Shown: positions 1,274 to 59,375, counted from the first letter of the whole stretch. The stretch: 62,939 bases of DNA, filler included, from Asterionella formosa (GCA_002256025.1; 11 parts of 11 records of this genome joined end to end with filler, not necessarily neighbours in it); one strand, 5' to 3'. Notes: generated from the letters alone by a model not told the origin. Numbers and translations are program-made.

Positions 1274-1993
1274 GGAAGGTAAATTAGTCTATCTAGCAGG
1301 AAGGCTAGAAGCAGAGACAAGAGAGAAAGTAAGTGGTACTAGGTAGTACTACGAGCAAGTAAGAGTCAACGTGAAGAAAGACCCAGCCCATGGGAAGGAG
1401 TATGGACCATTTTAACATGAGAATACATGTAGCGACGCAGGAACTTACAATTTACGCTAAGTGACCTTCAAGTAAAAAAGCCTGGTTGATCTTGAATCGA
1501 TCACATACATTAGTTGAATACATGAAATAGCGTACTTGAATATATTAACTATAGTATCTGAATACATCGTGTTAATTATTAGATCAGAGTATCATGCATG
1601 CATTCTTAATCATACGTACTATATTACGCGATCATCTTCACAAAATTACATGAAATACTTCACGTAATTCTGTAATATTGTTCAAGGAATTTAGCAAGCA
1701 AAATTTAAAACACCCGTTGACACAATCACGATGATACCATATGCCGGGCGGACAGCGAGAAACTATTTACCAAATAATATTCTACTATTGTGTGCTCTAT
1801 AAATTTATTACCTGCCCTGTTAGAAATACTTACTGCTGGTAGAAGTTGGCAGCCTCCCATAAATCAATTCACTCATGTTTGGCCACATACGTACATATGG
1901 GTCATACGTGTCATCTCCATACTACTTTTCCTGTTCACCATTGAATGATGATACCAGAAGCATGCTTCAATATTCCTCTGCTAGAATTTATCA

Positions 1994-2190
1994 ATTCTAT
2001 TCACGTAATTCATTCATTTAGTTCACGTAATGTATTGATTCTAATCACGTAATTCATTAATTAAGTTAACGTAAGGTATTAGCATTCTATTCACGGAATT
2101 CATTAATTTAGTTCACGTAACATATTAATTCTGTTGACGTAATTCATAGATTTAGTTCACATTATGTATTTGTTATGTTCACGTAGTGTA
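1994..2190. repeat. Degenerate ~21-22 bp tandem repeat with (T)TCACGTAA core
   Basis: About nine units such as attcacgtaattcattcatttag / ttcacgtaatgtattgattct, alternating into a ~43-44 bp higher-order unit. Confidence 0.8.
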
Positions 2191-2193
2191 TCA

Positions 2194-2303
2194 GAAGGCG
2201 TTCAACAATTTATCTGGAGGTCGTTCAACTATTCATCTGAAAGTCAAGAAATATTTTACTTGAAGGTTGTTCAACTATTTTTCTGTAGGTCAATCAACTA
2301 ATT
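2194..2303. repeat. Second degenerate ~22-23 bp tandem repeat (GAAGGTYGTTCAACTATT core)
   Basis: gaaggcgttcaacaatttatct, ggaggtcgttcaactattcatct, gaaggttgttcaactatttt, gtaggtcaatcaactaattt. Confidence 0.7.
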
Positions 2304-3742
2304 TAAAGAGTTCTATCAACGCACGAAAGGCAGCTGTTCATTCAGAATGGCGTGGTCACCCCTGAAACGGGATTATTTCTGCTACTAATAGATAGTAATG
2401 CTAAAAGTTCGAGCCGCCATCATGAAGGAACCTCAATGTGATCTATGGATTGAAATAATGGTCCCTGAATGATTTCGCTTCTAGTAGCGCCAACCAGATG
2501 GATCTCAACGTACCCTCCTGGAACTCCGTGAAGACGTTCTACTGGAATTTTATGACTTGCAGGGATATCCCAACAACATCGATTCATATGTGATCGATGC
2601 AGTCGTCGTGAGACAACATGGTGCCCATGGCAGAAGATGTACAATGGTATGACGGGACGCCGAAAATCGTGGAGAATCAGCCACTCAAATGTGTTGAAAT
2701 TCTTGATATCTATGTCATCACAATCGACACAGCCTGCCTTTCTTGGCAAATCAGCAGCTTTCCGCAACGAGAAGTGTCCATATGGTGAACGCAATGTGAC
2801 TTGAATGGACCTTTGGCATATATGTGGCAAACAATAACATCCTCGTCAGCAGACATCATTCCCATGTTGATTTTGAGGAATAATAATTGCGTTGTGCACA
2901 CCAGCAACTGTAAATATATTCGATTGCCTACAGTTACCTACCGATAGTAACCTACAAGTAGCTAGCTATAGTCCAATATATTGTACATGGTGAACTTATA
3001 AAGTAATTACTTGTAACATCAAAAAATTCCATCTTGAATTCAATGTATGAATGCGAAGAATTAGATAATAACTGGGAAGAGTGAGCTTGTTTACCTGAAG
3101 AGCGTATGTTCTTTATGTGATGTGCACAACCGTGAAACTTCGATATTTCAAGGCATGAAATTAGATGCAACAGATATTGTTTCTCCTATTTTGTAAATGA
3201 AGGAGCTTGTTGTAAGCAACATAGAGCCTTATTGTTATAAGATTATAGAGGAGTTTTTCTGGTATAAAAGTACAAGATGAATGACTGTGAACAATCAGTA
3301 GATTTGGTTGTGCATTGACTTCTATTGAAGATTCACTGCAAGTAAACAATGTGTTCATACTTGGATTTCAAGGAACAGGAATTGGTGCAGTTTATGTGAA
3401 AATTGCTCTTCTGTTCTGCACCTAACTTGCTAGCTCCTTGTTCGTCCCAGATTCTGAACCATAACATGCAACTTCAGCCTTCTAGAAATACCACTACACA
3501 ATTCAAGTATTTCAAAATACTTAATCCTAAAGGAAATAAGCACTACTACTTTAAGTTGGTATAGCGGTTATGATTTTTCTATTATTTTCTTTCACTTTTT
3601 AAGGCTACCGGCCTATTTGCTCAGCGATATTATGTTTTCATGTGTCGTTGGTGTTGCCATCTTGGCAATTACACTAATGGAACTAGTTATGATTTGAGAG
3701 TTTTGGAGCACCCTGAACATACAATGGCAGTACCATGGGGTT

Positions 3743-4501
3743 TTATGGTTGTAATTCGTTCGATTCAGAATATACTATAATCTCGTTGCCAAGGAATGCA
3801 TAATCAAACTCCAGCTGTCTGGCACGTCGGTCCTCTCTGCGCCCCTTGCTACTCGTACCTTTTTTGTTGTAGTCCTTTTGTGTTTTCATATTCTTTGGCT
3901 TTAAAGTGTCACGAGTTGACGCCAGCGGTGTCCCTTTCCATGCTGCTTGGCCTGTTAGGGAGTACGCAGATTTGGAAAGAAGCGCAGAAAGGAGTCCAGT
4001 CAAGTCCGTTGTATTGCTGCAAATTGTTCGATCAGCTCGCATCTCTGTTTTCGACCTCTGCTGGGCTTCGATAAAGTCAGAGAGCGCTTGAGAATCATTC
4101 CGTTCTTGAAATACAACTCCTAGTGACGGCATATCGTGCTGATGATACCCTTTGTCTGGTAAATAGGAAGGTGACAATAGTTCTGATAGTAATCCTGACA
4201 AGTTAGAGGAAACTGTCACTATTGACTTGTTGTCACGCTCAATGTCAATGGGCTCGTGATTGCGTGATTTCGATTGTCCTGGAACAGATGTCAATGTTAT
4301 TGGCTTTCCATGACGGTTTGGAAACGTTCTGCTTCCAGTCTCGTGACGGTTATCGAGAATACAGGCAGTTTCGGAGCCTTTCTCGTCGGTAATCGTAGTC
4401 CTCATGCCTCTCTTTGCTTCACTTGAGTGGTCGCATGCGGACAAGAAACGACAAGGAGGGCCAACGTTAAAATATTTTCCCGTAGTAATTAATGTGTACA
4501 A
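3743..4501 (-). CDS. Hypothetical protein (252-aa ORF, true start uncertain)
   Basis: Long stop-free ORF in AT-rich surroundings with an internal repeat (LSGLLSELLS / LTGLLSALLS). No recognisable domain. Confidence 0.4.
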   Translation of the reverse strand: MYTLITTGKYFNVGPPCRFLSACDHSSEAKRGMRTTITDEKGSETACILDNRHETGSRTFPNRHGKPITLTSVPGQSKSRNHEPIDIERDNKSIVTVSSNLSGLLSELLSPSYLPDKGYHQHDMPSLGVVFQERNDSQALSDFIEAQQRSKTEMRADRTICSNTTDLTGLLSALLSKSAYSLTGQAAWKGTPLASTRDTLKPKNMKTQKDYNKKGTSSKGRREDRRARQLEFDYAFLGNEIIVYSESNELQP

Positions 4502-5072
4502 ATATTTTTGTGTTCAATGACCCATGAAACAAGAATAAAATAAAAAAACCCGATATAAATATTTTTTGGAGAGCACAAGGCAGGTTATATACCGGCATTG
4601 AAGTTATATTACACATCAGTTGCCGTCATTTTGCTGATTCACGTTAGCGGCTGACGGGCAGACACAGGAATTCAAAAAGAAATAAGCTCGAGCGTTAACG
4701 GTTAAATCAAAAACGCTTGGCGCAGACCCGTGAAATCGATGTTCGCCAAGAAATCAATTTGAGCGATATGTTTCGGTCCAAAATAAGTCATTTAGAAGAA
4801 TATTAGTGTAACACAGTTTAATGAATCAGAATTTAGGGTAAGAAATGTACAATTATTGTTTTAGGCAGATACAAATCGTTTCGGACATCAGTGAAATTGT
4901 TTCAGACGATTTCTTGTCAGACGATTCTCGCTCTTTGTAACTTTAAAAAGTATATGTGTATACCGTTGTGGTAAAGGAGTTGCTCGGATGCATCATCATC
5001 GAGGAGAAACCAAGGAACCCTGGTGGGCCTTGTCCATAATTATCTAGCAATTCTTTTCTATGTACCGGATTA

Positions 5073-5652
5073 AGGTTGCGGCCCCGGCTTAACCCTAGTT
5101 TGGAGAAAACGTCGCTAGGGTTGTAAAAACAGTACGGAACAAAGACGCTAGGGTTGTAAAAACAGTACGGAACAAAGAATTTGCTTTCCCATGATTCAAG
5201 TTTCCGTTGGAATATTCAATTCAATAGCAGGAATCAGCGCCAGATTGATAGAGTTCCATTTTAAACAAACAAAAATGGTATTTAAACATTAATACTATAT
5301 CTACGTTCCTGTTTGTAGACATGATTTTACTCCACGCCAAAACAAATGCATAAATCAGGAGTATGCCAACATGTATGCTCATGGTTAATGTTTATCCATT
5401 TACATTCAAACCAAACGTTGCTGGATGTAGCTTTAATATTACTCTGTGCCCAAAGGAATACTGTATATAAAATCAGTACCGGAGTACCGGTGTACCAAGA
5501 CTAGTACATAATCTTGTTTCATGATGATGGAAGACAGGATGAAACTAGTACTGGTACTGATTTTTCCCATTGGTATACAGTACATCTAAAACATGTGGTT
5601 CAAGTGTGGCTGGCGTGATTTGACAAGACGGAATACTTCAGCCAATCTGGAG
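5073..5652 (-). mobile_element. Harbinger-like MITE copy, truncated by contig end
   Basis: Starts TTA|AGGTTGCGGCCCCGG and is a diverged reverse complement of ~58048-58658. Contains a ~32-bp tandem duplication near 5113-5178. Confidence 0.8.
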
Positions 5653-5752
5653 NNNNNNNNNNNNNNNNNNNNNNNNNNNNNNNNNNNNNNNNNNNNTTAA
5701 TTAATTAANNNNNNNNNNNNNNNNNNNNNNNNNNNNNNNNNNNNNNNNNNNN
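5653..5752. other. Artificial scaffold spacer N/TTAATTAATTAA/N. Also at 11403-11502, 17153-17252, 22892-22991, 28621-28720, 34350-34449, 40077-40176, 45799-45898, 51520-51619, 57230-57329
   Basis: Identical 100-bp spacers with stop codons in all six frames; the segments between them never increase in length. Confidence 0.97.
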
Positions 5753-10913: not shown

Positions 10914-11080
10914 TGTTAATATCTGCATATGATGCTCCATACATGCGCCGTACGAACCATACCGGCGCAGCCACCAGATTAGGTACATGCATGAGTGCTA
11001 ACAACGATGTACTCGAAACAGCAATAGAATAGTCATAATATTGTAGTTTACCTTTATTCATGACAAGGTTCCCCTCAACA
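10914..11080 (+). mobile_element. 5' LTR (167 bp) of a CoDi-like Ty1/copia element
   Basis: TGTT...AACA termini; 7 differences from the 167-bp LTR at 13476-13642; followed by a leader and gag start. Confidence 0.9.
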
Positions 11081-11227
11081 GAACTACAATATCTGTTCTC
11101 TCTCTCTTGTCCGCACCTGTGACGTTGCGGCTCTTGTCCACAGTGCAAACCAGCAGTGGTCTCAACAATCAACCGTCCAGCACGGCTTGCCCATTTGCTG
11201 CCCCTGTCTCTCAGGCCTTCTTCCACC

Positions 11228-11402
11228 ATGATGACTCCAATCGCTTCCGCTGTTTTCCCATTCCCTCATCCGCTTTTGACGCCGATCGAGGGCAAACCTA
11301 CAGCCTTCACTGTAACCCGCCTTCGCAAGGAACTCTTTGCCAACGCTCGCTCTGTCCACTGTACCAGTGGTGGTGGTGCCAATGGTTTCCTTGGTATTGT
11401 CA
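11228..11402 (+). CDS. Copia gag N-terminus, truncated by contig end
   Basis: MMTPIASAVFPFPHPLLTPIEGKPTAFTVTRLRKELFANARSVHCTSGGGANGFLGIV, just downstream of the LTR; resembles diatom copia gag starts. Confidence 0.75.
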
Positions 11403-11502
11403 NNNNNNNNNNNNNNNNNNNNNNNNNNNNNNNNNNNNNNNNNNNNTTAATTAATTAANNNNNNNNNNNNNNNNNNNNNNNNNNNNNNNNNNNNNNNNNN
11501 NN

Positions 11503-12167
11503 GGTCGGATCGACCTCCCTCTGGAACTTGAAAACCATGAGGTATCTTCATGTACAATACGCACTTGGCGTCTGCCTGAGGTTACGCCAATGGAAAGTCG
11601 ATCTGACGGGTGCTCCATTCGTGCATCAATGATAGCGTCAAAAAGAAACATATAGGTGGCCATGAGAGAGTGGCCGCATAAGTCTCCCAATAATTTATAC
11701 CATATTCCTGCTTGCCACCATGCAAGTTAAGTTGTGCTGCCTTCCACTTGTACACCTCCCTAGTAGCATTATGACATTTTCTTTTCATAGCCCACACAAA
11801 AGGCAATATTTTCATACCCAGAGGGACCTCTGTCTTTGGTACGACCCGCCAATGTCCATTGTTGTGGTGTGCCATAACCTCATTCTCCATAGCCGCAATG
11901 AATTCCTTGTGGTCCGGCTCCCTTAAAGCTTGATCGGCTTGCATAGTGTCTGGGTCTGATGTTTTTGCAGCAAACGCGCAATAGGGTCCTCCATTTGAAC
12001 TTGCAATTGATATTCCTCATCCCCGACATGATCTTCTAGTAAGGAGGAACTGTACAAAGCCCCTGCTGAACACCCTCCTGTAGTCTCAGAGACGGCTTGA
12101 ACCGTTGGGACCAGCAAATCCCAATACCTAGTGTTGGATTGGCAACCTTGAGCTCCACAGGGGGATT
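11503..12167 (-). pseudogene. Ty1/copia integrase-RT linker and RT N-terminus
   Basis: EPDHKEFIAAMENEVMAH..WRVVP..VWAMKRK..VYKWKA..HGGKQEYGINYWETYA..TRQIDF, with frameshifts. Confidence 0.88.
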
Positions 12168-13475
12168 GGCCTGGCTATTGATGGGCACATCTATGCCGAA
12201 ATCCATCGTGGCATGTATGGGCTGCCTCAAGCTGGTAAACTTGCCGATGATCAACTTGCTCAGTTCTCGCTCCCACATCATTACCTCCCCTGCCCAGTCA
12301 CGGGGCCTATGGATGGATACCGCCAGTGATCTCATGTTTACGCTTGTTGTTGATGATTTTGGTGTACGTTACACCAAACGTAGTGATGTGGACCGTCTCC
12401 TAACCACTTTACATACCAAATACCGACTCACAACTGATTGGACTGGCTCTCGTTACATTGGTCTTACACTGACGTGGGACTACAAACATCGCACCGTCGA
12501 CCTCACTATGCCTGGTTACATTGTTCATGCTCTACAACGATTCACGCACTCCACCCCAACACACCCACAACTTGCCCCCCATGCCTGGACTGCACCTAGT
12601 TATGGCGCTCGCCAGCAATTTGTTGTTTCTGATGTCACTCCTGTCCTTGACCTCCATGATAAAACACGTGTGCAAGAGATTCTTGGTACTTTATTGTATT
12701 ATGCCCGTGCTATTGACTGTACTATGTTGCCGGCCCTTGGTACATTGGCTACATAACAAGCAACCCCCACTGTGGCTACCTTGACTTCAATTACTCACCT
12801 TCTCAATTATTGTGCCACTCATCCTGAGGCCACACTTCGCTTTACTGCCAGTGACATGGTCCTCCATGTTGAAAGCGATGCTTCCTATCTCTCTGAAACA
12901 CGTGGTCACTCCTGCGCTGTTGGCATTCACTTTCTCAGCTGTAAACCCTTGTCTCCGAATTAGCCTCACTACGTCCATCCCTCCTCTTAACGGTGCTATT
13001 TACGTACACTGTCAAATTCTTAAGGAGGTTTTATCAAGTGCTGCTGAGGACGAATTAGCTGCTTTGTTCCACAATCATGGCAAAGAGGCATATGCTATTC
13101 GCAACATTCTTGTTGAGCTTGGTCATCCCCAACCTTCTACCCGTATTGTCACCGATAATAGCACTGCCAGTGGCATTGCCAATTAAACCGTCCGCCAAAA
13201 ACACTCCAAAGCTATGGATATACGTTATTACTGGGTACGCGATCTGGTTCGCCAAAGCCAATTTCTTGTATACTGGAAAAAAGGTAGTTTGAATCATGCT
13301 GATTATTTCACTAAACATCATCCCGCTTCCCATCATATGTTGATGCGCCCACACTATCTCCATTGCCCTCCATCCCTCCCTAGTCCTCCTAACTATTATG
13401 CGTGCTTGGCTTCCGATGCTGATATCATCTCCACCTCAGCTCCTGTTCTTCTGCTTGAATCTGTTGGTGAGGGTG
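12168..13475 (+). pseudogene. Ty1/copia RT and RNase H, degenerate
   Basis: YAEIHRGMYGLPQAG, FTLVVDDFGVRY, QEILGTLLYYARAID, VESDASYLSE, SSAAEDELAALF, TDNSTA, MDIRYYWVRD, NHADYFTKHH, with stops and frameshifts. PPT GGTGAGGGTG at 13466-13475. Confidence 0.92.
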
Positions 13476-13642
13476 TGCTAATATCTGCATATGATGCTCC
13501 ATACATGCGCCGTACGAACCATACCGGCGCAAAAACCAGATTAGGTACATGCATGAGTGCTAACAACGATGTACTCGAAACAGCAATAGAATAGTCATAA
13601 TATTGTAGTTCACCTTTATTCACGACAAGGTTCCCCTTAACA
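13476..13642 (+). mobile_element. 3' LTR (167 bp), same family as 10914-11080
   Basis: Follows the PPT; TG...CA termini; about 96% identical to 10914-11080. Confidence 0.92.
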
Positions 13643-15594
13643 GTTAGTTCCGCTGGTGATTAAGGGGATTGTCACATGGTTAGTTATAATTGAAACGGGT
13701 GGGTTTCTTTCAAATGGGTTGTCCTGAACTGTGACACCAGCATATCGCAACTGATTTGGGTTGATCAATGAGTGTGTGACTTTATCACCATACCATAGAC
13801 CTTCATGAATGACCAGAATATAAACTTGGCCATCTTGCTGATCCATGTAAGATGTTGCTGCAGTTACAATGGTATGTCACGCTCAGGGTTATATGCTTTG
13901 GAGTTTTTTTGGGCCACATCACATACCTGACCAGTGTAGTGGAGCAGTACGAAATTTGATCAAAGTGCGCATGTGTCTGCATGGGAATCAAGTTCACGAC
14001 GAGCTGTCTGTATATAAGTGTGATGAAGAGACAAGATAGTTCGATGAATAGTATGTGTGGCCCGTCTCGTTGTTAATTGATATGCTGCCAACACACAAGA
14101 CAGAGCCGCAAGTCATTCTTTTTTCCTTTGTTTTGCGCTTTCCTTCCCTCCAAATGCTTTTCCTGCTTGATTAGCATTTGACTTCTTTGGTGTATCCTCT
14201 GCACCATTGTCTTCATTTGCCTTCTGAATTTAACTAATGGTTGCCGTTGTTAGCTGCTTTGTAGTCAAGTCAGATATGGTTCACTTGCTTCCACCTTGTT
14301 CTCCCTTCCTGTCGCGTTCTTTGCGAATTTTGTCACGCTCATCAAAAGATAGCTTCTCCCATTCCGCTGTAGAATGATATCCAGTACTGGTTTTCTCTTG
14401 ACTACTGCATCCGCCTCACCCGTTTTGTCCTTGTCCATTTCCTCTTCCTCCTCGTCCACTGTTTCGCCCGCCACGACCACCACCATGACCACCAGTAGTA
14501 AGTGCACTAATTTTTCAAGACAATTGATAATCCGGGGCCTGAGAAATCTCGGAGTCTAAATGGTTAGCAGCAAGAGTAAAAGTTTTCCCATCTGTATTCA
14601 ACTGATACCTTAGTTGTGCCACTGCTGCCGCTAATGCAGAGTTCTGCACTTTGGTAAGAAGCTCATCGACTTTGGCTCTCTCAGTTAATGGTTCATTTTC
14701 TTCCTCAAAAATGGTAAACATCCGCTGTAACGAATCTAGGAACTTGTTGAACGGTAAGGCTCGTTCAATTTAGTAGTGCAAGGTATTTTGGATCCGCTTT
14801 GCATCAGCTATTCTCCTAGTGGAGTTTCCTTCACCAGCATACTAGTGACGACGCAAAGCAATCATGTCACACCTGCCATCTTGGTACTTGGCAATGTTGC
14901 GTATCCAGTTCTCAGTGTTTTGTCCTTGCAAGAACCCCCTCAAGAACCCAATAATAAGATTGTGCACTCGCCTTGTATCGGCTATGTAATACTGCCCATT
15001 AAGCAATGCTCGATTAATCATCCTTTCAATGAATGTAGCATATTCTGTTCCTGGGGTGGGGTTCTCTATCTCTCGCACAATATATGACAATGGTATGCCA
15101 TTTACCCCAGGGACGACCGATAGGTAGTTAATGAACGCCTTCTCCAAGTCAGGCCATTTACGTTCATCCTTGAATTTTCCTGGATCAGCTGACTTTGAGT
15201 TGGTGGTAACCAATTCAATGTCGGATTTACGAATTTGAGCCAAACTGAGGACTGCATACATCATTTCTTCATCAAAATTTTCATGGTTTGGAATATCGCT
15301 TGCTCTATGACAGTCCTGTACCCAATGCATAACACCAGTCAGCTTCTTAGTGCGTCCTAGTCCAAAGACAATCTGTCCATTTGCCTGGGTACGCTTGCCA
15401 AACTCATCCGCCATATCACAGATATCCTTCTCCACAAGGTAACGGAAATCTTCGAATTGGCCTAACCCTGCCTGCATGATGCCGGCCCTTTCGGCTTCTG
15501 ATTCAAATCCAATCACCTGGAGTACTTTGTCAACGTCTATCAACATCATTGGTGAACCTTCATTCACAATCGGAGCAACTGCCACTTCGGCCAT
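13643..15594 (-). pseudogene. CoDi-like copia gag and protease, cut off by the adjacent element's LTR
   Basis: Gag ORF 14842-15594 (DPGKFKDERKWPD..GVNGIPLSYIVRE), continuing in broken frames. Protease ELDSHADT and HEGLWYGDKVTHSLINPNQLR..VQDNPF; ends abruptly at 13643. Confidence 0.88.
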
Positions 15595-15634
15595 CTTGTA
15601 GTTCTGTTCTGTTCTATTCTGTATATGAATATAA

Positions 15635-16042
15635 TGTTAGTACGTGAGGGGCTTCACGTTTCGCTAATGCCTGATGCGATGATCAGTCTCTCCTTGGCCA
15701 CTCGCTGCGCTAGGGATTGAGAAGGATTCCCTTCCTCTATCCGGTTGTCATGCTGTGCTTCCAGAGCCCACATCCAGCCGTTGCTGGTGTATCTGGAAAT
15801 ATCGACACTTTGACAACATCGCATTCAATATTCGATTCCTTTTTTTTCTTTCGCTTGCTTTATCCTTTTTCCGCTAGCATCGCTCTCGCTTTTTACAATA
15901 GGTCTTATAAACTAAATCATAATCGCTGTGTGAAGTCCGACATAGTGACTTACTTAGGTAAAGATGTATTAAAAGGATTAATTGTAAAAAGAGTGAGCAA
16001 GATCGAGCACTCACTTCTTGCTTTCGCTATCGCTAACTAACA
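15635..16042 (-). mobile_element. 5' LTR (~408 bp) of the minus-strand copia element
   Basis: Perfect 7-bp terminal inverted repeat TGTTAGT...ACTAACA, 40 bp upstream of the gag ATG. Confidence 0.75.
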
Positions 16043-17799
16043 GACACTTCCACTCTATCGCCAATGTCTGCGTGATATAACGACTAGTCACTGCTGTACC
16101 GTACTGCTACGTATCGCTAAGTACTTTGCGCCAACCTTAATTGATCACTTGTCCAATTCTTTGTTACCATCAATAGAGCAACAAGTGGGTGCGTCTCTTC
16201 ATTGCTGTTTGCTCCTGGAAAAGTTGGTGGTGTCCATGTCATACTCATAAATAGAGGGACAAGTGTCTTTCATCATTGCGGTTTGCCGCAGAAAAAATTG
16301 GTACCCGTGGTATCGTCATTTGCTCATTGGAACCACTGTCCGTTGCCTCCAACCTGATGAGCATGTGTGTATGTGCACTGTCAACTTGTTTACATTTCAG
16401 GAGTGACTTAGCTATTAAAGTGCGTGTTATAATATCACACTCCTTAGTACAATGCAGAATACTACAGTTCCCAATCATCTCATCATGATTCATAAGATGA
16501 TAATGTGATATCACGATAGGTTTACATTGATGCATACATCACCAAAGTATGATACGTAATATTGAATAAAGTATATCACATCGCTATGATGCATTGATCA
16601 TAGAAATGTGATGATTTCTTAAAATGTTTATGATATAATTTTGATCAAAATATGATCATGTTAAAATAATACAATGACAATAAAATGCGATAAAATATGT
16701 ATGCAAATGTTATTGATACATCACAGAAAACAAATAATTCAATCATAATGTATGTTACTTAATATATATATTCGACTTTTAATGTATACAGTAAAAGCCA
16801 AAAGTTAATATGATAGTATTATATGGTGGATAGGATCTAAGTACCCTATATAGTTGCGTTGATATGTACATCACTATAATATGATTTTTGATATGGATTG
16901 ATGCATATCACATACCAGTATCCTCAACTACTGGCCATCACGTTCATTGTTGTGTCAATTTTTCCTTGTTATAGCTGTATCTATGCCAGCATGTGTATTG
17001 TGTAAACACAACACTGGGGGAATGTGCATATTACACTGCTGTGCTCTGTTCAATAATTACTACACTCAGTTACCATCACACCAGCTGCACCTCCACAAGA
17101 GCCGCAAAAAGCTTGCTCTGTGTTTCCCTTCCACTGTTTTACATCATAGTCTNNNNNNNNNNNNNNNNNNNNNNNNNNNNNNNNNNNNNNNNNNNNTTAA
17201 TTAATTAANNNNNNNNNNNNNNNNNNNNNNNNNNNNNNNNNNNNNNNNNNNNCGAACTACCTTGTTAATGATTTCCCGTTCCATTCGGGATCGATGGCCA
17301 TCTTGAAGCTGTTGAAATAGTCCCATTGGGTCACTATTCTATCCCTATATTTATATGAAGAACTAGATATATTGCTGGTTGATGCTATAATTCGTTCAAG
17401 GCAAGGAACATTAAGTCTACAGATAGTGGTATTTGAGATAACTACCGGAATAAGATGATGTTGGTAATCAAATGACACCATATATCTATTACGCACACAC
17501 TGCTTAATCTGTTGATACTTTTACCGTGTTACCAGTAGACCTCAAGTTGAAACAGAACAGTCAAATGAATTTTGTTTGTATCTCCAAAATCTGCCCAGTC
17601 ATGAACTTTTTGAGGTTATCATGAACATGAATGAATCTTAAATCATATAGGAATCAATATTTTAAGTCTTGTCATGACCATGAGTCAATTTTCTCATCTA
17701 TGGCTTAATTTTTGTTTGTTTGTTTTGCTAAAAGTTGATTCTATAATCTCACTTTATTTGGAAATAGTACCAGTAGATTGATTTTTTCAACTACAAACA

Positions 17800-23326: not shown

Positions 23327-23657
23327 ACTTGGTCTGTATTTCTCTCTCGCCGAATCTATTCAAATTGGAAATGCAGTGTCCAGTCTGATCCCTCGTTTCC
23401 AACTGCTGAGTGCTGTCGTTTTGTATGTCCACCTACGGATGATTATTCGCGACAGTAACTGTAAGTAGAGTGATCAATGATGAGAAAGCCAAGGCGAAAC
23501 ACATCAGCTAATAGCAATACGTACGGTATAATTATCACAAGATGGAACGGCATGGATACTATTAGAATATCAAAATATGATATCGGTAGTCTAATATACT
23601 TCGCACGTTCTTGCTTATTTATTAAGCACGACAGCAAATCCAACCAAGCACCAATTT

Positions 23658-23900
23658 TGGTACCTGGATCCTGGTACCAGGTACTCCCTGGTACCAAGGG
23701 ACTGCAGGTAGTTTACCGGCGGTATAGTAATACTATGTCCTGGTGCCAGGTACCAAGTAACGCTAGGTAGACCACTACGGTACTGGTGGAACCTGGTATC
23801 TTTGCTCTTACCTTATGCTTACTGGTACCAGGGGGTACCTGGTACTACGTTTCGGACAGAGGAGGTCCAGTACCGCACGCTTGTTCGTACCGGTACTCTA
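23658..23900. repeat. GGTACC/CCWGG palindromic oligomer array
   Basis: tggtacctggatcctggtaccaggtactccctggtacc...actggtaccagggggtacctggtac. Confidence 0.85.
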
Positions 23901-24750: not shown

Positions 24751-27700
24751 CGTCTGCAAATAAAAACCATTATATTCCTATGATGTATCATAGGATTATG
24801 ATCATCTGATCATAATTTTTCTTTATATCATCTAATAATTTTGATAAATGTCCTCGTAATTTAAATAGTAACCCTTTTGACTATGGAAATTTAATTATTA
24901 TATGCATTGTTTCTTTTAGGTTCCTTTATTTAAATTTCTTGGTAGGATAATGATGTACCAGTTAAAGTAATGTGGTTTGGCTCATCATCCTCGCCAGTCC
25001 TCACTCTGATTCTTGCAACAACGACAAAGTAGCCATGTCAAGAGGAACAAGTGTTTGTGATAAAATCTTCATTTGTCGTTCAAGTCATCATATGTCTTCG
25101 ATGAATCATCATCTACATTGCACAGTATGTTTGTACTATGCAATCTGTTAAGAGCTTGAAAAGAAATCCAATGAAAACGAAATGCACAATCTACTTCTCT
25201 GTAGTAACATCGTCTCTCGTTAGAACGAAATACATCTAGAATTGAAACGCAGCATAGCAGCAGGCGATATGCACAAAGAAGCATGAGACTGTCTAGTTAT
25301 AGTAACAGAGTGATTCTGGTTTCGTAATTTTCATGTCTCATCAGATTTTCTTTGTCATCGTACTAGTTCCTTACCTTGAAGACATGTATCTGGAATATTT
25401 CAATGGATGGCAGCAGTTGGATTTAGACACAAACCTCAACAAAAGCACTAGTACTTTGTAGATGTTCATGAAAAGCGAGACACTTTGCTTGGCCTATCGA
25501 CCACCAGTCTATTGCAAAAATACAAGAAGCACAAGTTGAATGCCCATTTATGGATTCAAGGTTCAGTAGTGCAACAATGTTAAATATTAGAAACCGGAAG
25601 TCAAATTTCATCTAATTACGGTTTTCAATTTTACTGTTTTTGATTGAGAGGAAGCAATGGTAGAATGGCTGCGAAACGGGCGGGGGTCCAAGACCCTTCT
25701 TGAATGTCTCTTGCCACAGAAAATGGAGAACAGCCTCCATGATCTGTTGATTGTTGCTGTATGGTGCCACTGACCAAAACCTCCAGAAATCTCAATGATT
25801 TGCTTATTTCTTGACTTGAATGCAACAGGGATCGAAACCAGTGGAAAAATCAAAAGGCAACTAAAAATGCTCTGCAAACATCAGGACAATTGTGAAAGAG
25901 AAATGAAGGTTCTTGGGAGGAGAAGTAAAGGGATAATTGCTTCTGGTCTTGCGGGGACAAGAATGGATTGACCCAAACAATCATGTTGACAAATAAGTAC
26001 CTACCCAAAAAGGAAGCAATGCTTTCGGCATAATTAATTTATACACAAGCCTGCGCCACCTGACGTCGTCAATATAGCCACCTCGACTTTAGTATCAATG
26101 AAGAAGTCGATGGGTGGAGCATGTGAGGAAAATCGGGGTTGAGGTTTTCTTGATGCCAACGTGGACCTGCTTGGCTGAACTCCTTGCAGATGAAGGCATT
26201 GAGTAACCTGGGCCTGTGCAGCCAAAGGATAAAGAAAAATCTATGACAAGGGTGGTGAGATAGTGTTTAGGAAGGGGGAGCAAAAGTTATCATAGCTGAA
26301 TGCATTCGAAAATTCGTACAGACAATAAATGATGGCATACCATGGCTGCTCTTGGCTGACAGTTGCTAAGTCGCTCAATGTACAAACACAACAAGCAAGG
26401 GTGCACAAAAGACATTCCCATTTTAATCGACTGGCTACTACATAGTTTTGAGACTCACCATTCTGCTGCAATGGGGTGGACTTTGATCATTGCTTCGTTC
26501 GAAGCACAATCAATTCGAATGCTGTCCAGTGAAACAGCCAATGAAAACAATTGTGGCGAAAAAGCGCAGAACAGATCAAGAGATTTCATAGAAATTAAAA
26601 TAACAGGGCATATATGATGCACTGCTCCTTTTGTAGACTATATTTGATCATTTCCATATTTCACATCATACAGGCGGTGCATGGATGACTCCTCCCGCCC
26701 TTTCATTAGATATACAGCCATGTTGCGATAATTATACAGGACCTATAGGATTGGTGGTAGTCTGGTGGTCATCATTTCCGCATTGTATACCAGTAGGAGT
26801 CATGTATGCATGCATGCTGCGATAATTCTTACAAGACATAAAGATTTGGTAGCTTGGGGGTTATCACTTCCATACTGTATACAGGGGGGAAGGGGTTGCA
26901 TGCATGAGCAACTACTCCGGTATAAACTATGATCTTTAATCAATAAAGTTTGATTTGTTTATCCTATACCTTTGATCATAACATATTGATCATATGATAA
27001 ATGGTGTCGTTGATGAGAAAATGAAAGATCAACATTTATTTTCAAGAATTAGGATCAATTGATCTTAAACATATGATCAAATGATCCTAAACACATGAGC
27101 ATATTCAGTTTTCCGCTGCACTATTGTGGTATTCCCATGATAGAAGTAATACCCAGCAAGTATACAGTGGTACTACCAGTAGGCCATATGAATTTTTCGA
27201 CTGTATATGGTCAATGTGTCTATATTCATAAATGTATTTGAAAAATTGGTGATGACTCCCGTTTATTAGGGGGCTTAATTAAATCAGCCACTGACTTGTA
27301 GGTGCAAGAATTGACACAAAACAAATTGAAAAATTCAACAGGTCGTGGAAAACTATGAACTCATCATGCATTGTATATATTTGAATTATGTATAATCAAA
27401 ATTGATTGTAGTACTATACACAGGATGTGCCATATAGTGAGCGTGTTTAAAAATATGCAAATGTTCAACTATATATTCATTTAAACTTACAAATCTTTAT
27501 ATATAGTATGTATACATGGCTGAAACATTTGAAATCATGTTTTCATGTTCCTTGTCATGCATACACTTTGTTCCTGAAATGAAGGATCATCACACATTAT
27601 GACGAGGAAAACGAAAGTGATAATACAGCACAATGATACTTGTGGCTTAGAAGAGAAGGGCGGAATCAATTGATGGTAAGTCAAGAGCAAATGCCTTTCA

Positions 27701-34019: not shown

Positions 34020-34200
34020 GTACCAGGTACCTGGTACCCTGGTACCTGATACCGGCACCTGCATGCCTGCATGACCTGATAGACACTGGTACCAGGTACC
34101 TGGTACTCTGACCGGCCTCCAACAGGCGAGGTACCAGTACCAGTACCTGGTACAGCAACTACCTGGTACCAGGTACCGGTGACTGCAGTACCCTAGTACG
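34020..34200. repeat. GGTACC/CCWGG palindromic oligomer array upstream of the USP gene
   Basis: gtaccaggtacctggtaccctggtacctg...tggtaccaggtacctggtac...acctggtaccaggtaccggt. Confidence 0.9.
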
Positions 34201-34449: not shown

Positions 34450-34816
34450 ACAGAATTAATGGTAGTCAGAGTGAAGAATATTTGTGAACGGAAATGTTGC
34501 GAATTGTCGAGAAAAGTACCGTATTATAGAGATTATTACTGAACAAATTTTTCTTCGTGTCGCAGGAAAATATTGTCAGTTGGCCCCAAAAATTATGTGG
34601 GTTTCTAAAATAATTATGGAAGTTGTCGAAACTATTTTAGTTCACTCCGTCCATATATATTGTATGATGCATCATATTTTTTTGTGATGTCATACCCTTA
34701 AATTATGTACTTAGCTAAATTCGTCATATTGGGCCACCCAAATAATTAATTTGGGTGATCATATTTGACTAGCGTTTTTTTTGTGGCGGCTGTACCAGTA
34801 ATCGGCGTTGTAGATG
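34450..34816 (-). mobile_element. DNA transposon end (CATCTACAACGCC terminus) abutting a copia element
   Basis: Near-identical reverse complement of 50413-50779; similarity stops sharply at ...GTTGTAGATG, where copia pol sequence begins. Confidence 0.8.
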
Positions 34817-37800
34817 ATCCGTGCTGGTACACGCTGTATTTCAATGGGCGAAAGTAAAGCAACACCAAGAGACAATGGTGTCCCTCTTTCTTGTGTCATA
34901 GTCACCTGCATTGGTGACCCCCTCTGAAGATAAGACGGCGTCTCATCTCTGTGTAGACCCATGGTGGGTAACACCTTAGCCTCCATATGACGTTTCTTGT
35001 CTAGGTAGGCATCATCGTTTTCGGTCCATTCCTCCTGTAAGGTAGTAGGCAAATCATGTTCATCAAAATACGCCTGAAAGCGTGATTTGTTGAAAATATT
35101 CTCCCTGTGTGCTGCGGGGTCATCTCCCTCTGGAATGGACATCACTGTAGAAAAGAAGTCATCGAACACCACATGAAATTGAGGTGATATACTTCCAGTC
35201 TTCAAGTTTAGTACCAGGGGCACGTTGCTACTGTGATTAGGGAACATTCCCACAAACAGAGCACGCCGAGATCTTGGTTCCCATCTGGGCAGTTTCATGC
35301 CATTTTGCATCTTTGGATCTAATACATAGGATGGACAGCCCCACACATGTAAATCCTTAAGACCATGCCTGGGTACTAGAGACCCAGTAAATATATCCAT
35401 TGGTGACTGACCTGTTCGTATGCCTGGGACATGGTTATAGACATGCGCAGCATAATCAACTGCCATAGGCCATAGTGTCGCATCAGCAGTTTCAGGCCAT
35501 CTTATAGATGCATGTAGCATCATGACTCGTGCCATATTGGATACAGTGCGTATGCTTCTTTCAGCAACACCGTTCTGGTGGTGTGCACCAACTCCACAGT
35601 ATTTTACTTGTTGTCCTCGCGCAATAATTGCGTCAACAAACTCCTTAGCGCCGAATGTTCCGTTATCAGTCATATAGAATGCAACAAGAACACCGTGATT
35701 GTAAGCCCAATTCTCGAATTGCTGCTTTCCAGTGAGTGTTTCGGTTGACGAAAATCCCACCTGATGGTGAACATAAAGAAGGCCTGATGCGTGATCCACA
35801 AAAATACAGCCCCCTTTATACATGCAAGAATCTTGTGATTTTCCTCGCGAAGAATATTGTCGTCCGAGGACACGGGATTGAAAATGGTCCACAGACACTC
35901 CTGAGCCTGGATATAGATCACCAGACTTACATTTCCCTCCCTCTCAGGCGAAGGAATGCTGATTGCGGCTTTTAAAGGTTTTCTATGGGCCTTACCGTAC
36001 TCACATGCTGCACACTTAGGTGCAGTGCAACGGGCAGCTGCTCGACTCTTGAGATTGTTACCAAATGACGGTTGTCGTAATAACCACTGAATTGTAGCAG
36101 AGCCCAAATGTCCCAGTTTGTAGTGCCAATGCAGATACTCCTTCTGTGCCTCTGTTAAATTCTGATTGCGGTCTTCGGTGACGCATAGATATACTAGGTA
36201 CTCCTCTCGTTGGCCTGCAGTAGCAGAACGAATTGCTCGACTTGTTGGCATTTCATTGACTGGGTCATTGTAAATAGTTAAAGGTGGTTTACCATCTATC
36301 AGTAGCTGGGCATAGTCATCCAGTGTGACAAACTGACCGGTAAAACCTTGTTCTTTAGAGAATATTTGTTGGGGTGATAGAAGACGCTGTGTACACTGAG
36401 GAACATAGTATGCATTCAGATGCAGGTGCAACAAACGTCCATCGTCAGATAGAAAAGTCCAGTGGACAGTGCCTATGCCTTCTACAGCAAGGCCTGAAGC
36501 AATCCCTCCCAGGCGTAATGGTGCCTTGGGAATTGATAACTCCCCAACAAAATCTCCCTTATATGCGCTTACGGGGCGTGTTGCCCCAGTATCCCAAATA
36601 ACGGAGAAATGTTCATCTTTGTTGTTGAACATGGTGTTTGAATCCATTTCATATGGTTTTATTTGTTCATTAGAACTTAATATATTTATTTCTGGTGCAT
36701 ATATTTCATGTAGTTTACTGTCAGTTTCATGTAAATGTGTAGGGCCAACAGTGACGCATCGCTGCTGGCAGGCAACTCAGAAGGTACTGGTGAACCATGT
36801 GTGATCATCGTGGTCCTCATTACCCGATTCATCATCGGAGTCACTTGCCTCACTAGTAGAGTAGTAAATGCGACCAGACAAGACTGCACGGAATAAGCTA
36901 ATCTGTTCCACTTCCATCATTTCTGTGGATTCATCATCATGGACATCTGATTCACAATCAAAGAACATGTCACAGTCTTCGTCTGTACTAGAGAGGTAGC
37001 CTGTGGGGAGGACAGTAGTCCTATTTGGGCCCAATGGTGGCGGAGTCACGCATGGGGATTTCAGACTGGCGTCAACTTGTTGAGCATGCAACAAATCACG
37101 GACAACATTTAACCATTCTACATTCTCTTCACTACTGGCAGCAACATATCCAAAAGGGGTAAAAGCAAGTGTGGCGTCCTCCTCTGGTGCATCATCCACG
37201 TTGAGGACTGCATGAGCTAGACCTGCTACTGCACCCTGGTTTTTAACTGGCTGGCTTCCTGTGTGGGTGGCTGTGGAGTTTGTAGTGGACCAACGGCCTT
37301 CCCAGCCACGACATTTAGCGCACCAATGCCATGTTTTTCCGTCCCTATTAATTGTATTAAGAGAACCATCAGTAGGAGGAACATCCTTTCTGGACCTGAG
37401 TCCTTCTTCTTGAATTCACCTCCAGGCACATCATTTTCTGGACAGTTAGGCTTAATATGCCCCTTTTTTCCACACTTATAACAAACAATGTCAGGAGAGT
37501 CTTTAATACTACCTAGATTCCTACGCAGCAGCTTTAATTCCTCAACAACTGCTGCTTGATAGGCATTGGGAAGGGCATCTGACTGCAACTTAGGTACTGT
37601 CTTCAGAGGTGGCCAGCGGTCATAATCAACTGGACGCTTAAAACTGGACATTGCCAACTCGCATAAGGACTTAACACCCAGAGAAGTACTCTGAAATGCC
37701 AGAATTGTCCCTACATCCTAACCAAGTAGGGAGCGCTCTTCATCATCTACCTGTACAGACTTTGAATAGAACGGGGTTCTGAACTCTTCTACACTGCAAC

Positions 37801-44917: not shown

Positions 44918-45745
44918 TTACGCAAGGCGTGACACTCCATACGCTTCGGTTAACTCCATCAACTCCTTTGTGAGCGTCGCGGCTTCTGGATCATCAAGAA
45001 AGGGAATAACATCATCCGAAAGGTCTAATTTGATCTCATCAATGGCAGCCCGAATGGAGGCATTGATCTTTTCTTGAATTACAGCTTCGGCCGAACGTTT
45101 CATGGAGGCCATCTCTTCCGCTTTGACTATTTCATTTTCAGCCATAAGTTCCGCTTTTTTGGTATCGATCTGGTTCTGAAACGTTTCCCAATTAGGAATC
45201 TCATCGGGAAGAACTGGGTCATACTTCGTTAGTCCAGCAACTCCTCCAGGAAATCTTGTTTCAATGTCCTGAGTGACATCGTTGAGGAACTCTTGAAATT
45301 CCAGGTCCAGTGCTGCTGGCTTCATCGGCAACACTCCTCTCAATTCAGTCTCCTTGGCAGTCAGCCCGGAAATCGCATGTTGCAATATTTCGGCAGCTTG
45401 TCCTTCCAAGGACGCAATAGCAGGTTGAAATTTTTGAAACAGTCGTCCCTTCTTTTCCCGCAGCGCTATTTCCAATTCGGCATTGCGATTGTCCACCAAA
45501 AGATCGGGTACTAGTATCTCGCGTCCCAAGTCCTTGGCAACTCGAGGTCGGTACTCTGCCATGAGCTCTTCAATTCGAGTATCTTCCAACACCGCGCATT
45601 CGTCAGAAGTGGGAGGGGTACCAAAGCCCTGGTACATACTGATCCATAGATCCATCGATTTGGACAAAACTCGAACTACCTTGTTAATGATTTCCCGTTC
45701 CATTCGGGATCGATGGCCATCTTGAAGCTGTTGAAATAGTCCCAT
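44918..45745 (-). CDS. Hypothetical helical/coiled-coil protein fragment
   Basis: 275-aa E/L/A-rich ORF. Its upstream region continues on the contig that starts at 17253. Resemblance to GBP-type helical regions is only a guess. Confidence 0.55.
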   Translation of the reverse strand: MGLFQQLQDGHRSRMEREIINKVVRVLSKSMDLWISMYQGFGTPPTSDECAVLEDTRIEELMAEYRPRVAKDLGREILVPDLLVDNRNAELEIALREKKGRLFQKFQPAIASLEGQAAEILQHAISGLTAKETELRGVLPMKPAALDLEFQEFLNDVTQDIETRFPGGVAGLTKYDPVLPDEIPNWETFQNQIDTKKAELMAENEIVKAEEMASMKRSAEAVIQEKINASIRAAIDEIKLDLSDDVIPFLDDPEAATLTKELMELTEAYGVSRLA

Positions 45746-46227
45746 TGGGTCACTATTCTATCCCTATATTTATATGAAGAACTAGATATATTGCTGGTNN
45801 NNNNNNNNNNNNNNNNNNNNNNNNNNNNNNNNNNNNNNNNNNTTAATTAATTAANNNNNNNNNNNNNNNNNNNNNNNNNNNNNNNNNNNNNNNNNNNNGA
45901 ATCCTTCATGATGTTGTCGCAACCTTGACCATGACGAAAATACGAATTATCTCCACGAAAATAGAGAACGACGCTTTGCTACTTGCTCCCTGTATTAAGA
46001 ACGACATGGAAAATACAATCGTAAAAGAAGTAAAGTAATAACACTAATAATGACAACGAAAATTGAGATCGCCGATAACAACATGAAGTCCCGTTTTTCT
46101 TGCGAGGTGAATAACTCTCTCATTTTTCACAAGACGAAAATAATTGTCATTTTAATACATCTTAGAAAAATGTGGGCTATCCTGTAGAACTAAAGAAATT
46201 TACTTAGGTCCATTAGAAGGGAAATCT

Positions 46228-46309
46228 CTTCATTGTCCTGGGCCCCCTTAAGTAAAATCAGTCAAATTCAGTCACGGCAGTGTACATTGGGGGGTCCAGG
46301 ACAATGAAG
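46228..46309. repeat. 82-bp mini inverted-repeat element (second copy 57112-57194, inverted)
   Basis: 20-bp arms CTTCATTGTCCTGGGCCCCC / GGGGGTCCAGGACAATGAAG with one mismatch; flanks are also shared between the copies. Confidence 0.8.
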
Positions 46310-46972
46310 TATACGGGTAGTCACATGGTACCGGTACCAGGGCACCTGGTACCAGGTACAACACTATTTTGGTTCTTTGTTGTAAGGAGAAGCAAATACT
46401 TCATACTGTGCAGTACATACCGGTACTACATTCTTTTTTATTTTAACTATTTCGTACTGTAACACAAATGTTATATAGGAACGTTCCTTTTGTCCCTGCT
46501 ATATCGGAACATTTCGGTATATTTATTAAATCAATGCGTAAGTATGTTTGCTTACATACCGGTAACTCACATCAATTTACCGGTATGTACAGTGGTTGTG
46601 ACGAGCTCAAATATCTTGTACTCCTTCTCTGGTACGGAGTAGTTCCTGGTATTGTACTAACTATGTAGAATCACCCTCTTATTCTCAACGTAAAGAGTTC
46701 GACCTATTTTACTGATATTTTTGTGTACGACCGGTATTGGTGAAACTCGAACGCGTTGTCTACTTATAAAAAGGATGCATGTGCAGAAATCATTTGTTTT
46801 CTCTCCGTTCCCCCTACGCTCAGCCATTTCAATATATTTTTGCGGCGAGGTGTTCATAAGGTTTCCACAAAACAAAGTACCGGTAATTGGATCAGCGAAT
46901 CCTTTACCCAGTAGTCACTAATCGACAAAAACCCAAAGTCTTGACTAGGCCTCTGCAAAGCGGACGATAACC

Positions 46973-47431
46973 ATGGTGTTGACCAAGAAAGCAGAACGGC
47001 AGAGGGTAAATGGACCCGCCAGCAAAGATAACGATAGAGGTTCTGCGTTCCTTCGATGCGCCATTTGGTTTGCGCTCGTGTCATTTTGTATCGAAGAAAT
47101 TTCGAAACAATTGCTTTTAAAGCATATAAAAGAGACCGGCCAAGGGGATGCCTCCAAAATTATTACATTTGAGACGGTCTTTAAAAAGATGCTTGATACA
47201 AGTGGGTATACAACAGAACCACCCAAGGTGGAGCCGCCACCACCTGCTGCAACTGAACCACCCAAGGTAGAACCGCCACCTCCTGCTGCAACCGAGCCAC
47301 CCAAGGTGGAGCCGCCACCCCCGGCTGCAACTGAACCACCCAAGGTGGAGCTACCACCCCCTGCTGCAACTGAACCACCCAAGGTGGAGCCTCCACCTCC
47401 TGCTGCTACTGAACCACCCAAGCTGGCGTAG
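46973..47431 (+). CDS. Type II membrane-anchored protein N-terminus with five TEPPKVEPPPPAA repeats
   Basis: Hydrophobic segment AFLRCAIWFALVSFCI, then 39-bp units at 47213-47407 that differ mostly at third codon positions. Confidence 0.7.
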   Translation: MVLTKKAERQRVNGPASKDNDRGSAFLRCAIWFALVSFCIEEISKQLLLKHIKETGQGDASKIITFETVFKKMLDTSGYTTEPPKVEPPPPAATEPPKVEPPPPAATEPPKVEPPPPAATEPPKVELPPPAATEPPKVEPPPPAATEPPKLA

Positions 47432-58829: not shown

Positions 58830-59375
58830 TACCTGGTATCGGGTTACGGTACCAGGTACCAAAATGTAGTTGCCTCCATCACCACCGGCAAAGGAACTTT
58901 GGTAACGCACCAGGTACCGCTGGTACCCCTCTAGAGTCCAGAGTACCAGGGGGTATATTATACCATGAACTTGGTTTTTGGTACTACCAGGTACGTACAA
59001 ACTGTCTCGGCCGGTGGCGGCAGGATATCGGTATGTAGTATACCAGTTGCAATTTTGGTTTGGGTGTTCGACACAACGAATGTTTTCGTTCGGCCGCTGT
59101 TGCTGATGGGTGCTGGTGTACCGGTAGTGTCTAAAGTCATTCTCCGGGTTGTTTTGTTTTCACATGCCGCGTCATCGATGCAACGATACCTATGAAATAT
59201 GTCCTAATGATTTGAGGAGGAGGAATCATACATGCATAATAGATACTACGAAATACCTGGTATCTGGTACCTGGTACCACGGCTACTAAACCACCACCAG
59301 GTATACCTGGTACCAGGGTATCATTACTGGAGTATGCCGATATGATCTCACTCCCTACCAGGTACCAGGGTACCA
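58830..59375. repeat. GGTACC/CCWGG palindromic oligomer arrays upstream of the rubredoxin gene
   Basis: Dense blocks at ~58830-59070 and ~59254-59375 (tacctggtatctggtacctggtacc...taccaggtaccagggtacc). Confidence 0.88.

Follow-up and report, generated by a model that had tools for sequence, protein, structure and literature searches.

Directly after the 5′ long terminal repeat (LTR) of a Ty1/copia retrotransposon family in the diatom Asterionella formosa lies a 12-nt putative primer-binding site (PBS) that is complementary to a segment inside the element's own LTR, and the same arrangement, with both arms changing in concert, recurs across related elements. Together, this suggests that the lineage as a whole probably primes its own reverse transcription as the yeast element Tf1 does. 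Predicted tRNA-independent self-priming is thus extended to a large clade of diatom Ty1/copia elements, and the covariation on which this prediction draws is very strong.

Composition of the analysed sequence

The window (the whole stretch of DNA that was analysed, 62,939 nt) is made up of 11 contigs, sorted by descending length from 5652 to 5610 nt. They are joined by 100-nt spacers consisting of 44 N, TTAATTAATTAA and another 44 N (Table 1), and features across any spacer are not contiguous in the organism. This applies to the copia element itself: 10914-13643, which a first-pass annotation had taken for a single contiguous element, is no such thing, as a contig join falls within it. One contig (piece 2) contributes the 5′ LTR, the PBS and the start of gag, and the next (piece 3) the reverse transcriptase (RT)/RNase H region and the 3′ LTR. 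Because the 5-nt flanks of the two LTRs are unlike (AGAGT versus GTTAG), the two LTR-bearing pieces probably represent different copies of one family. Both match a single metagenome contig, L001, at ~96% identity, and no further copies of this copia family were found within the window.

Other repeats were seen elsewhere in the window. The first 127 nt of piece 4 (17253-17379) are identical to the last 127 nt of piece 8 (45672-45798), which suggests that the two adjoin each other as nodes in an assembly graph with k=127. Contig-end repeats are shared by pieces 7 and 9 (34450-34816 versus 50779-50413, 97.8%) and by pieces 9 and 10 (46193-46321 versus 57229-57101, 97.7%), and a stretch of ~2.3 kb on one contig recurs in inverted orientation on another (24751-27015 versus 55659-53247, 86–89% identity). 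Palindromic GGTACC/CCAGGTACC repeats cluster at 34020-34177, 59264-59368 and 23657-23756, where they build long inverted repeats that match perfectly over as many as 19 bp, and 47172-47465 holds six copies of a 39-nt tandem repeat (63–100% identity). On the minus strand of piece 3, an open reading frame (ORF) of 264 aa (14842-15636) is without a Pfam hit and belongs to a multicopy family (233 hits), whose named members are Fragilaria crotonensis proteins only; this family is probably another diatom repeat or mobile element. A second, different copia-type pol is found on the minus strand at 34759-37717, with hits to Pol_BBD, gag_pre-integrase and SH3_retrovirus; neither an LTR nor a self-primer hairpin was identified on its contig.

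Organization and classification of the copia family

Table 1. Features of the copia family in the window, artificial joins, and priming-site features of three related elements with a target-site duplication (TSD).
Feature	Position	Strand	Remarks
Spacers	5653-5752, 11403-11502, 17153-17252 and seven others		Artificial joins
5′ LTR (U3-R-U5)	10914-11080	+	167 nt, TG..CA; 96% direct repeat with 13476-13642
Initiator-like motif TCATA	11033-11037	+	Predicted transcription start T 11036
Putative self-primer arm ATATTGTAGTTT	11038-11049	+	Inside 5′ LTR; pairs with PBS
31-nt loop, rest of R + U5	11050-11080	+	Holds 5-bp stem 11050-11054/11065-11069
Putative PBS GAACTACAATAT	11081-11092	+	Begins at first base past LTR; no TGG
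Leader, 147 nt	Between 5′ LTR and gag	+	Piece 2
gag start, 58 codons	11228-11402	+	Cut by contig end; matches gag ORF of L001
Artificial spacer	11403-11502	.	Inside 10914-13643; separates piece 2 from piece 3
pol 3′ part (RT + RNase H)	11503-13465	+	Second, degenerate copy; frameshifts and stops
Polypurine tract GGTGAGGGTG	13466-13475	+	Directly before 3′ LTR
3′ LTR, second copy	13476-13642	+	Arm ATATTGTAGTTC at 13600-13611, perfect complement of PBS sequence
L017	Site 46 nt before LTR end		TSD CTCCT; 10 nt after 5′ LTR pair perfectly (GACGTTACTA)
L074	Site 25 nt before LTR end		TSD TAAAC; 13 nt after 5′ LTR pair perfectly (GTCTTAGATTAAT)
L037	Site 36 nt before LTR end		TSD ATAAG; 11 nt after 5′ LTR pair perfectly (GTTGTCTATTA)

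The two LTRs of the window differ at seven of 167 positions. Their limits are independently supported, since sequencing-run contigs diverge into flanking sequence at the corresponding places of L001: loose contig ends with differing flanks occur at 4437/4438 and 4604, equivalent to 10914 and 11080 of the window. L001 itself represents a 5573-nt element, assembled in circularly permuted form, with gag at 315-1400 and pol at 1404-5522. Both lie in the same frame and are split by one stop codon (1401-1403), which suggests that Pol of this family may be expressed via stop-codon read-through. The pol part in the window is 96% identical to P0001, a protein retrieved as a relative, and 95.7% identical to 3141-4605 of L001. 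A GAGGGTG polypurine motif adjoins the LTR also in L001, L017, L037 and L074, and is thus kept across distant members; its translation, GEGV, belongs to the last part of the pol ORF, and this ORF continues into the LTR.

What kind of element is this? The original assignment to Ty1/copia stands. In P0001, which is 96% identical to the RT of the window, the SH3-like domain of the integrase (SH3_retrovirus, residues 367-423) precedes RVT_2 (840-957), which gives the PR-IN-RT-RH order of Ty1/copia, and in the window nothing but the polypurine tract separates RNase H from the 3′ LTR. On these domain profiles the lineage is a divergent copia, since RVT_2 (PF07727) scores are weak, with only P0012 (34.0 bits) over the curated cut-off of 31.6 and both P0001 (20.9) and P0014 (21.0) below it. 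The RT fragment of the window gave no Pfam hit at E ≤ 0.001; many relatives carry precomputed PF07727 annotation. As in copia elements, the LTR of the window has TG..CA ends, and target-site duplications—seen in L017, L074 and L037—measure 5 bp; the LTR of L074 begins with TC. The RT fragment (12070-12753) matches 180 longer proteins, P0001 being the best of them (96% identity). The relatives named among these matches are all diatoms, namely Cylindrotheca closterium, Fistulifera solaris and Fragilaria crotonensis; two additional matches with bacterial labels were taken as mislabelled contigs.

Complementarity between the PBS and the LTR

The starting observation, that the 12 nt following the 5′ LTR are the exact reverse complement of the LTR 12-mer at 13600-13611, is confirmed. 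Against 11038-11049 in the 5′ LTR, 11081-11092 forms 11 Watson–Crick pairs and one G–U pair, again as first described. At 11049 this copy alone has T, where the other copies have C, and 12 of 12 pairs form in L001 (the metagenome copy, 96% identical) as well as with the arm of the 3′ LTR. Without anchoring, inverted repeats of at least 10 bp abound (27 on the plus strand of the window), and what renders the arm/PBS match significant is that, unlike these, it is anchored at the LTR end: across 20,000 LTR shuffles, allowing G–U pairs and four offsets, an anchored match of at least 12 arose five times and one of at least 11 fourteen times.

The arm/PBS duplex is part of the minimum-free-energy structure in all seven RNAs that were folded, with −12.8 kcal/mol (z = −2.8) for the copy in the window and −15.2 kcal/mol (z = −4.4) for L001. 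The short ACCTT/AAGGT stem that had been pointed out between the two arms is present in the minimum-free-energy fold, stacked on the primer duplex, but is not conserved across the clade. ARAGORN predicted no tRNA genes in the window or in the 30 longest of the 80 related loci described below. As a separate candidate for a tRNA-type PBS we considered a TGG at ~11157, which was rejected: it lies 76 nt from the LTR, too far away, and is not conserved.

The same architecture in related elements

An alignment of 24 Pol proteins was used to retrieve 80 metagenome loci, with 35–99% identity to P0001. The pol end is recognisable in 78 of them, and in 66 at least 450 nt follow beyond pol. Many loci are circularly permuted assemblies, in the order pol, LTR, PBS, gag. 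We searched up to 930 nt past pol for the longest perfect hairpin with a loop of 20–90 nt, and one of at least 10 bp was found in 42 of the 66 loci. The corresponding counts are 0 of 63 for coding windows of equal size taken from these loci and two of 66 for dinucleotide shuffles. Where the 3′ LTR and host flank come next, no hairpin is seen past pol, as expected. Ten such loci carry a hairpin at the 5′ LTR instead, so that 52 of the 80 loci display the architecture; these ten were chosen by position and context, and hits of at least 10 bp elsewhere in the same loci are uncounted. Among the 28 loci without a hairpin of at least 10 bp, five hold 9-bp versions at the right place, and many are short contigs, possibly without the junction.

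Three of these loci—L017, L074 and L037—have LTR pairs that are each 100% identical and accompanied by a 5-bp target-site duplication. Including the family of the window, the 3′ arm begins at the first post-LTR base in four of four families with independently defined LTR ends, and the arm sequences of these four families are unrelated to one another (Table 1).

The 52 loci and the window together provide 53 rows for comparison, three of which are doubtful (L066, which lies in a tandem repeat, and L039 and L070, with 84-nt loops). Arms measure 10–15 bp, with 12 bp in 21 rows, and loops 25–84 nt (median 37), falling between 25 and 48 nt in 48 of the 53. The dinucleotide preceding the PBS is CA in 37 rows, TA in 13, GA in two and AC in one, and the first PBS base is G in 50. 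The 53 rows contain 43 distinct 10-nt PBS cores, and none has a PBS with an initial TGG.

Covariation of the two arms

Do LTR and PBS change together? One way of examining the first reading, as had been pointed out, is to look among relatives for compensatory changes that link the LTR 12-mer to the PBS, and the outcome is strongly positive in the covariation analysis, with RNAalifold and in sister pairs. In a MAFFT alignment of 37 sequences, 88.2% of cells across the 12 pairs are paired, a percentage that is inflated by rows having been picked for a perfect hairpin and deflated by about four rows that are misaligned by one column. Shuffling gives 54.1%, and none of 500 shuffles attains 88.2%. 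The covariation score amounts to 0.757, as compared to 0.185 after shuffling (0 of 500) and 0.097–0.126 when partners are slid by 1–3 columns, and all 12 pairs vary on both sides. For 10 clade members aligned with plain MAFFT, no structure being selected beforehand, RNAalifold predicts the primer–PBS helix alone, with compensatory changes at seven of the 12 pairs.

Closely related elements tell the same story. Eight sister pairs with unlike but still perfect arms are seen in a FastTree phylogeny that was built from the RNase H segment of 52 rows and has weak inner support. The end branches of one such pair, L072 and L079, measure 0 and 0.054, and their arms differ, each being perfect. Likewise, L024/L027 and L025/L026/L035/L036 are set apart by a C-to-A change in the arm, with a G-to-T change in the PBS to match. 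Across the rows, the only RNA that covaries with each element's PBS is that element's own LTR.

TAGCTC or TAGTTC, with A as the next base, forms the end of many 5′ arms, whereas the arms of other subclades end in AATCAC, AGAAC, ACGTC or CCAA. TAGCTC/TAGTTC resembles tRNA positions 8–14, the start of the D arm. Such ends may reflect a cleavage-site preference or tRNA mimicry.

Predicted start of transcription

The sequence directly before the 5′ arm is itself conserved. In the 37 aligned rows, C and A of the motif are invariant and T, A and A each reach at least 90%. CATW lies 11–20 nt upstream of the arm's 3′ end in 48 of the 53 rows, with a spacing between the T of CAT and the arm end of 15 nt in 32 rows, 16 nt in nine and 14 nt in six. 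For diatoms, TCAH+1W has been proposed as an initiator-like motif with the start at H (Kadono et al. 2015; PMC4686930). The strict TCAHW form occurs in only 30 of the 53 rows. From the initiator-like motif, a start at 11036 is predicted, i.e. two bases before the arm.

Part of 10914-11402 is contained in 13 of the 21 RNA-library runs listed. These runs exist as contigs; four of the runs were compared with 4000-5200 of L001, and their contigs break at variant sites and LTR borders. Loose contig ends at these borders are indicative of DNA carry-over or read-through, and we hence treat transcription as putative. Of 49 variant places, 40 were considered and none falls in either arm, with ~1.3 expected by chance, a difference to which we attach no weight. 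A- or T-rich ends and A runs of at least 12 were sought in the 80 loci, and none were found.

Proposed self-priming and competing explanations

How might such an element prime its reverse transcription? In the scheme that we propose, transcription would begin within the LTR at the conserved CAT(A/T)A initiator-like motif (predicted 11036). RNA bases ~+3 to +14 (11038-11049) would then fold back over the 31-nt loop to pair with 11081-11092, and the element's RNase H would cut at the 3′ end of the 5′ arm, leaving a primer of ~14–16 nt, whose 3′ OH would lie opposite the first PBS base. Its extension across the loop by reverse transcriptase would give a very short minus-strand strong-stop DNA, which would be transferred to the same sequence in the 3′ LTR. 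Plus-strand synthesis would copy the primer into the PBS; the PBS would thereby be rewritten from the LTR in each cycle, and this rewriting would keep the arms perfectly complementary while their sequence drifts. In Tf1, the primer is copied back into the PBS. It is the 3′ end of the minus-strand primer that sets the LTR/internal boundary of an element, and the coincidence of the 3′ arm with that border therefore supports a role in priming.

Tf1-like self-priming would account for the geometry, the fixed primer length and the perfect pairing despite fast drift, and we consider it, with good though not complete confidence, the best explanation of the arm/PBS architecture. The earlier reading of tRNA-independent self-priming in a diatom Ty1/copia lineage is thus supported by covariation across relatives. 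A point against it is that, if the loop comprises all of the remaining R plus U5, the remainder of R spans at most 25–48 nt in most elements, which is short.

Covariation proves a selected helix, not its function, and the structure might be an RNA or DNA element with another role—in packaging, dimerisation, as a poly(A)/termination signal or as a U5–leader stem—with the minus-strand primer being something else. Precedents for such helices exist: retroviral U5–leader and U5–IR stems adjoin the PBS, and in fungal GalEa copia elements the place of the PBS is taken by a conserved hairpin of unknown role (PMC5445492). Nevertheless, we deem this explanation unlikely. A helix serving another purpose would have to start at the very first post-LTR base in four of four border-defined families and to coexist with a lack of TGG-type sites after all 53 LTRs, and the spacing of 14–16 nt from CAT to the arm end is more readily reconciled with a measured primer than with a generic stem.

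Could the LTR-derived primer act in trans, being supplied as the arm of a second packaged genome or by a short LTR transcript? LTR retroelements package two genomes, and complementarity and covariation are equally compatible with pairing between molecules. That the loop is short and constrained (25–48 nt in 48 of the 53 rows) and that the fold-back is the minimum-free-energy structure in seven of seven RNAs both favour pairing in cis, and we rate a trans-acting primer as slightly more doubtful still.

Priming by a host tRNA, tRNA half or tRNA fragment, with the LTR match being secondary, appears highly improbable. The arm ends TAGCTC/TAGTTC, which resemble the start of a tRNA D arm, might hint at a tRNA origin, but such a segment would give no 3′ OH at the right place. 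Half-tRNA-primed copia lineages do exist (Neumann 2019; PMC6317226). Here, however, 53 elements have 43 distinct PBS cores, each matching its own LTR and none with an initial TGG, and near-identical sisters differ in both arms jointly, which the host tRNA pool, unable to track each element, would not explain. Finally, chance complementarity in an AT-rich LTR, for which the abundance of unanchored inverted repeats might be cited, has practically no probability left and is refuted by the frequency of hairpins over controls (52 of 80 loci with the architecture; post-pol controls 0/63 and 2/66), by the covariation and by the 5′-LTR hairpins, as well as by the rarity of anchored matches of at least 12 in shuffles (5/20,000).

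Comparison with known systems

Self-primed reverse transcription was shown experimentally for Tf1, which uses an 11-bp duplex (PMC7175516 and PMC10085805), whereas the diatom clade is known from sequence. The two are similar in that the PBS of Tf1/Tf2 from Schizosaccharomyces pombe abuts the 5′ LTR and is complementary to LTR sequence at or near the mRNA 5′ end, in duplex length (10–15 bp in the diatom clade), in the lack of tRNA complementarity (on the diatom side, of a TGG) and in a primer that, in the diatom elements, would likewise be released by cleavage where the 5′ arm reaches its 3′ end. They differ in that Tf1 needs two extra "pretzel" duplexes (PMC10085805 and PMC7175516), which are not conserved in the diatom clade (RNAalifold, 10 members); a 5-bp stem peculiar to the family of the window is stacked there on the primer duplex. 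The diatom loop (25–84 nt, median 37) is a further difference, and the diatom arm probably begins 2–4 nt past the predicted start, not at +1 as in Tf1. Moreover, Tf1/sushi elements are Ty3/gypsy chromoviruses, with the order RT-RH-IN and a C-terminal chromodomain, whereas in the diatom family integrase precedes RT and no chromodomain was found. The diatom element is hence predicted to work like Tf1 from outside the Tf1/sushi group.

Within Ty1/copia, Lin and Levin are said to have proposed Fourf as self-priming in 1997. The expectation that self-priming would be unusual for copia was overstated, as it has already been predicted for the plant TAR lineage, i.e. Fourf, Houba and Osr-1, with Fourf placed within TAR (Neumann et al. 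2019; PMC6317226). The diatom family resembles TAR in being a Ty1/copia lineage with a sequence-predicted self-primer in place of tRNA-Met; the hosts of TAR are land plants, and those of the present family are diatoms. The diatom clade adds to the predicted cases of copia self-priming and is not a first for the superfamily.

Copia-like elements from the same host group, the CoDi elements including Blackbeard and Surcouf, were described by Maumus et al. (2009, PMC2806351). Their LTRs are similarly short, with 163 bp in Blackbeard (PMC2806351) and 167 nt in the family of the window, and the terms "primer binding", "tRNA" and "priming" are absent from the main text of that paper. Our search of open-access papers and bioRxiv found no report of self-priming in diatom elements. 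Fungal GalEa copia elements also have, in place of a tRNA-type PBS, a conserved hairpin (Donnart et al. 2017; PMC5445492). Both the palindrome and the partner of this Conserved Hairpin Site are located at or after the LTR end, and no complementary U5 was found (PMC5445492). Unlike in GalEa, the diatom 5′ arm lies inside the LTR beside an initiator-like motif, which is the Tf1 geometry.

Implications

What does this mean for the elements and their hosts? The clade appears to represent a large, diatom-borne and minimal version of self-priming that makes do with a single hairpin, and its covariation is unusually clear. In the proposed mechanism, a ~15-nt primer measured from the initiator, one hairpin and an R–U5 of ~25–50 nt would suffice. 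Unlike yet perfectly paired arms in near-identical elements fit a PBS that is rewritten from the primer, and arm/PBS pairing would accordingly offer a natural marker of recent activity.

There is also a practical side. Annotation pipelines in which a PBS complementary to a tRNA serves to validate LTR elements would score the whole clade as PBS-less. For diatom genomes, a replacement rule can be given: CAT(A/T)A, an arm of ~12 nt, a loop of 25–50 nt ending in CA, and the complement beginning with G. Stress induces diatom copia elements, and Phaeodactylum offers a tractable experimental system for them (PMC2806351); if the copia elements of this species share the architecture, the mechanism could be tested there directly.

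A wider reading, that self-priming is standard, and perhaps ancestral, in a deep and species-rich copia clade of stramenopiles—maybe including the stress-activated CoDi elements—is speculative, and we give it a small but real chance of being correct. Benachenhou et al. (2013, PMC3601003) hypothesized that hairpin priming came before tRNA priming in LTR retroelements. If true, a self-priming stramenopile clade would, together with plant TAR, support this hairpin-first idea (PMC3601003).
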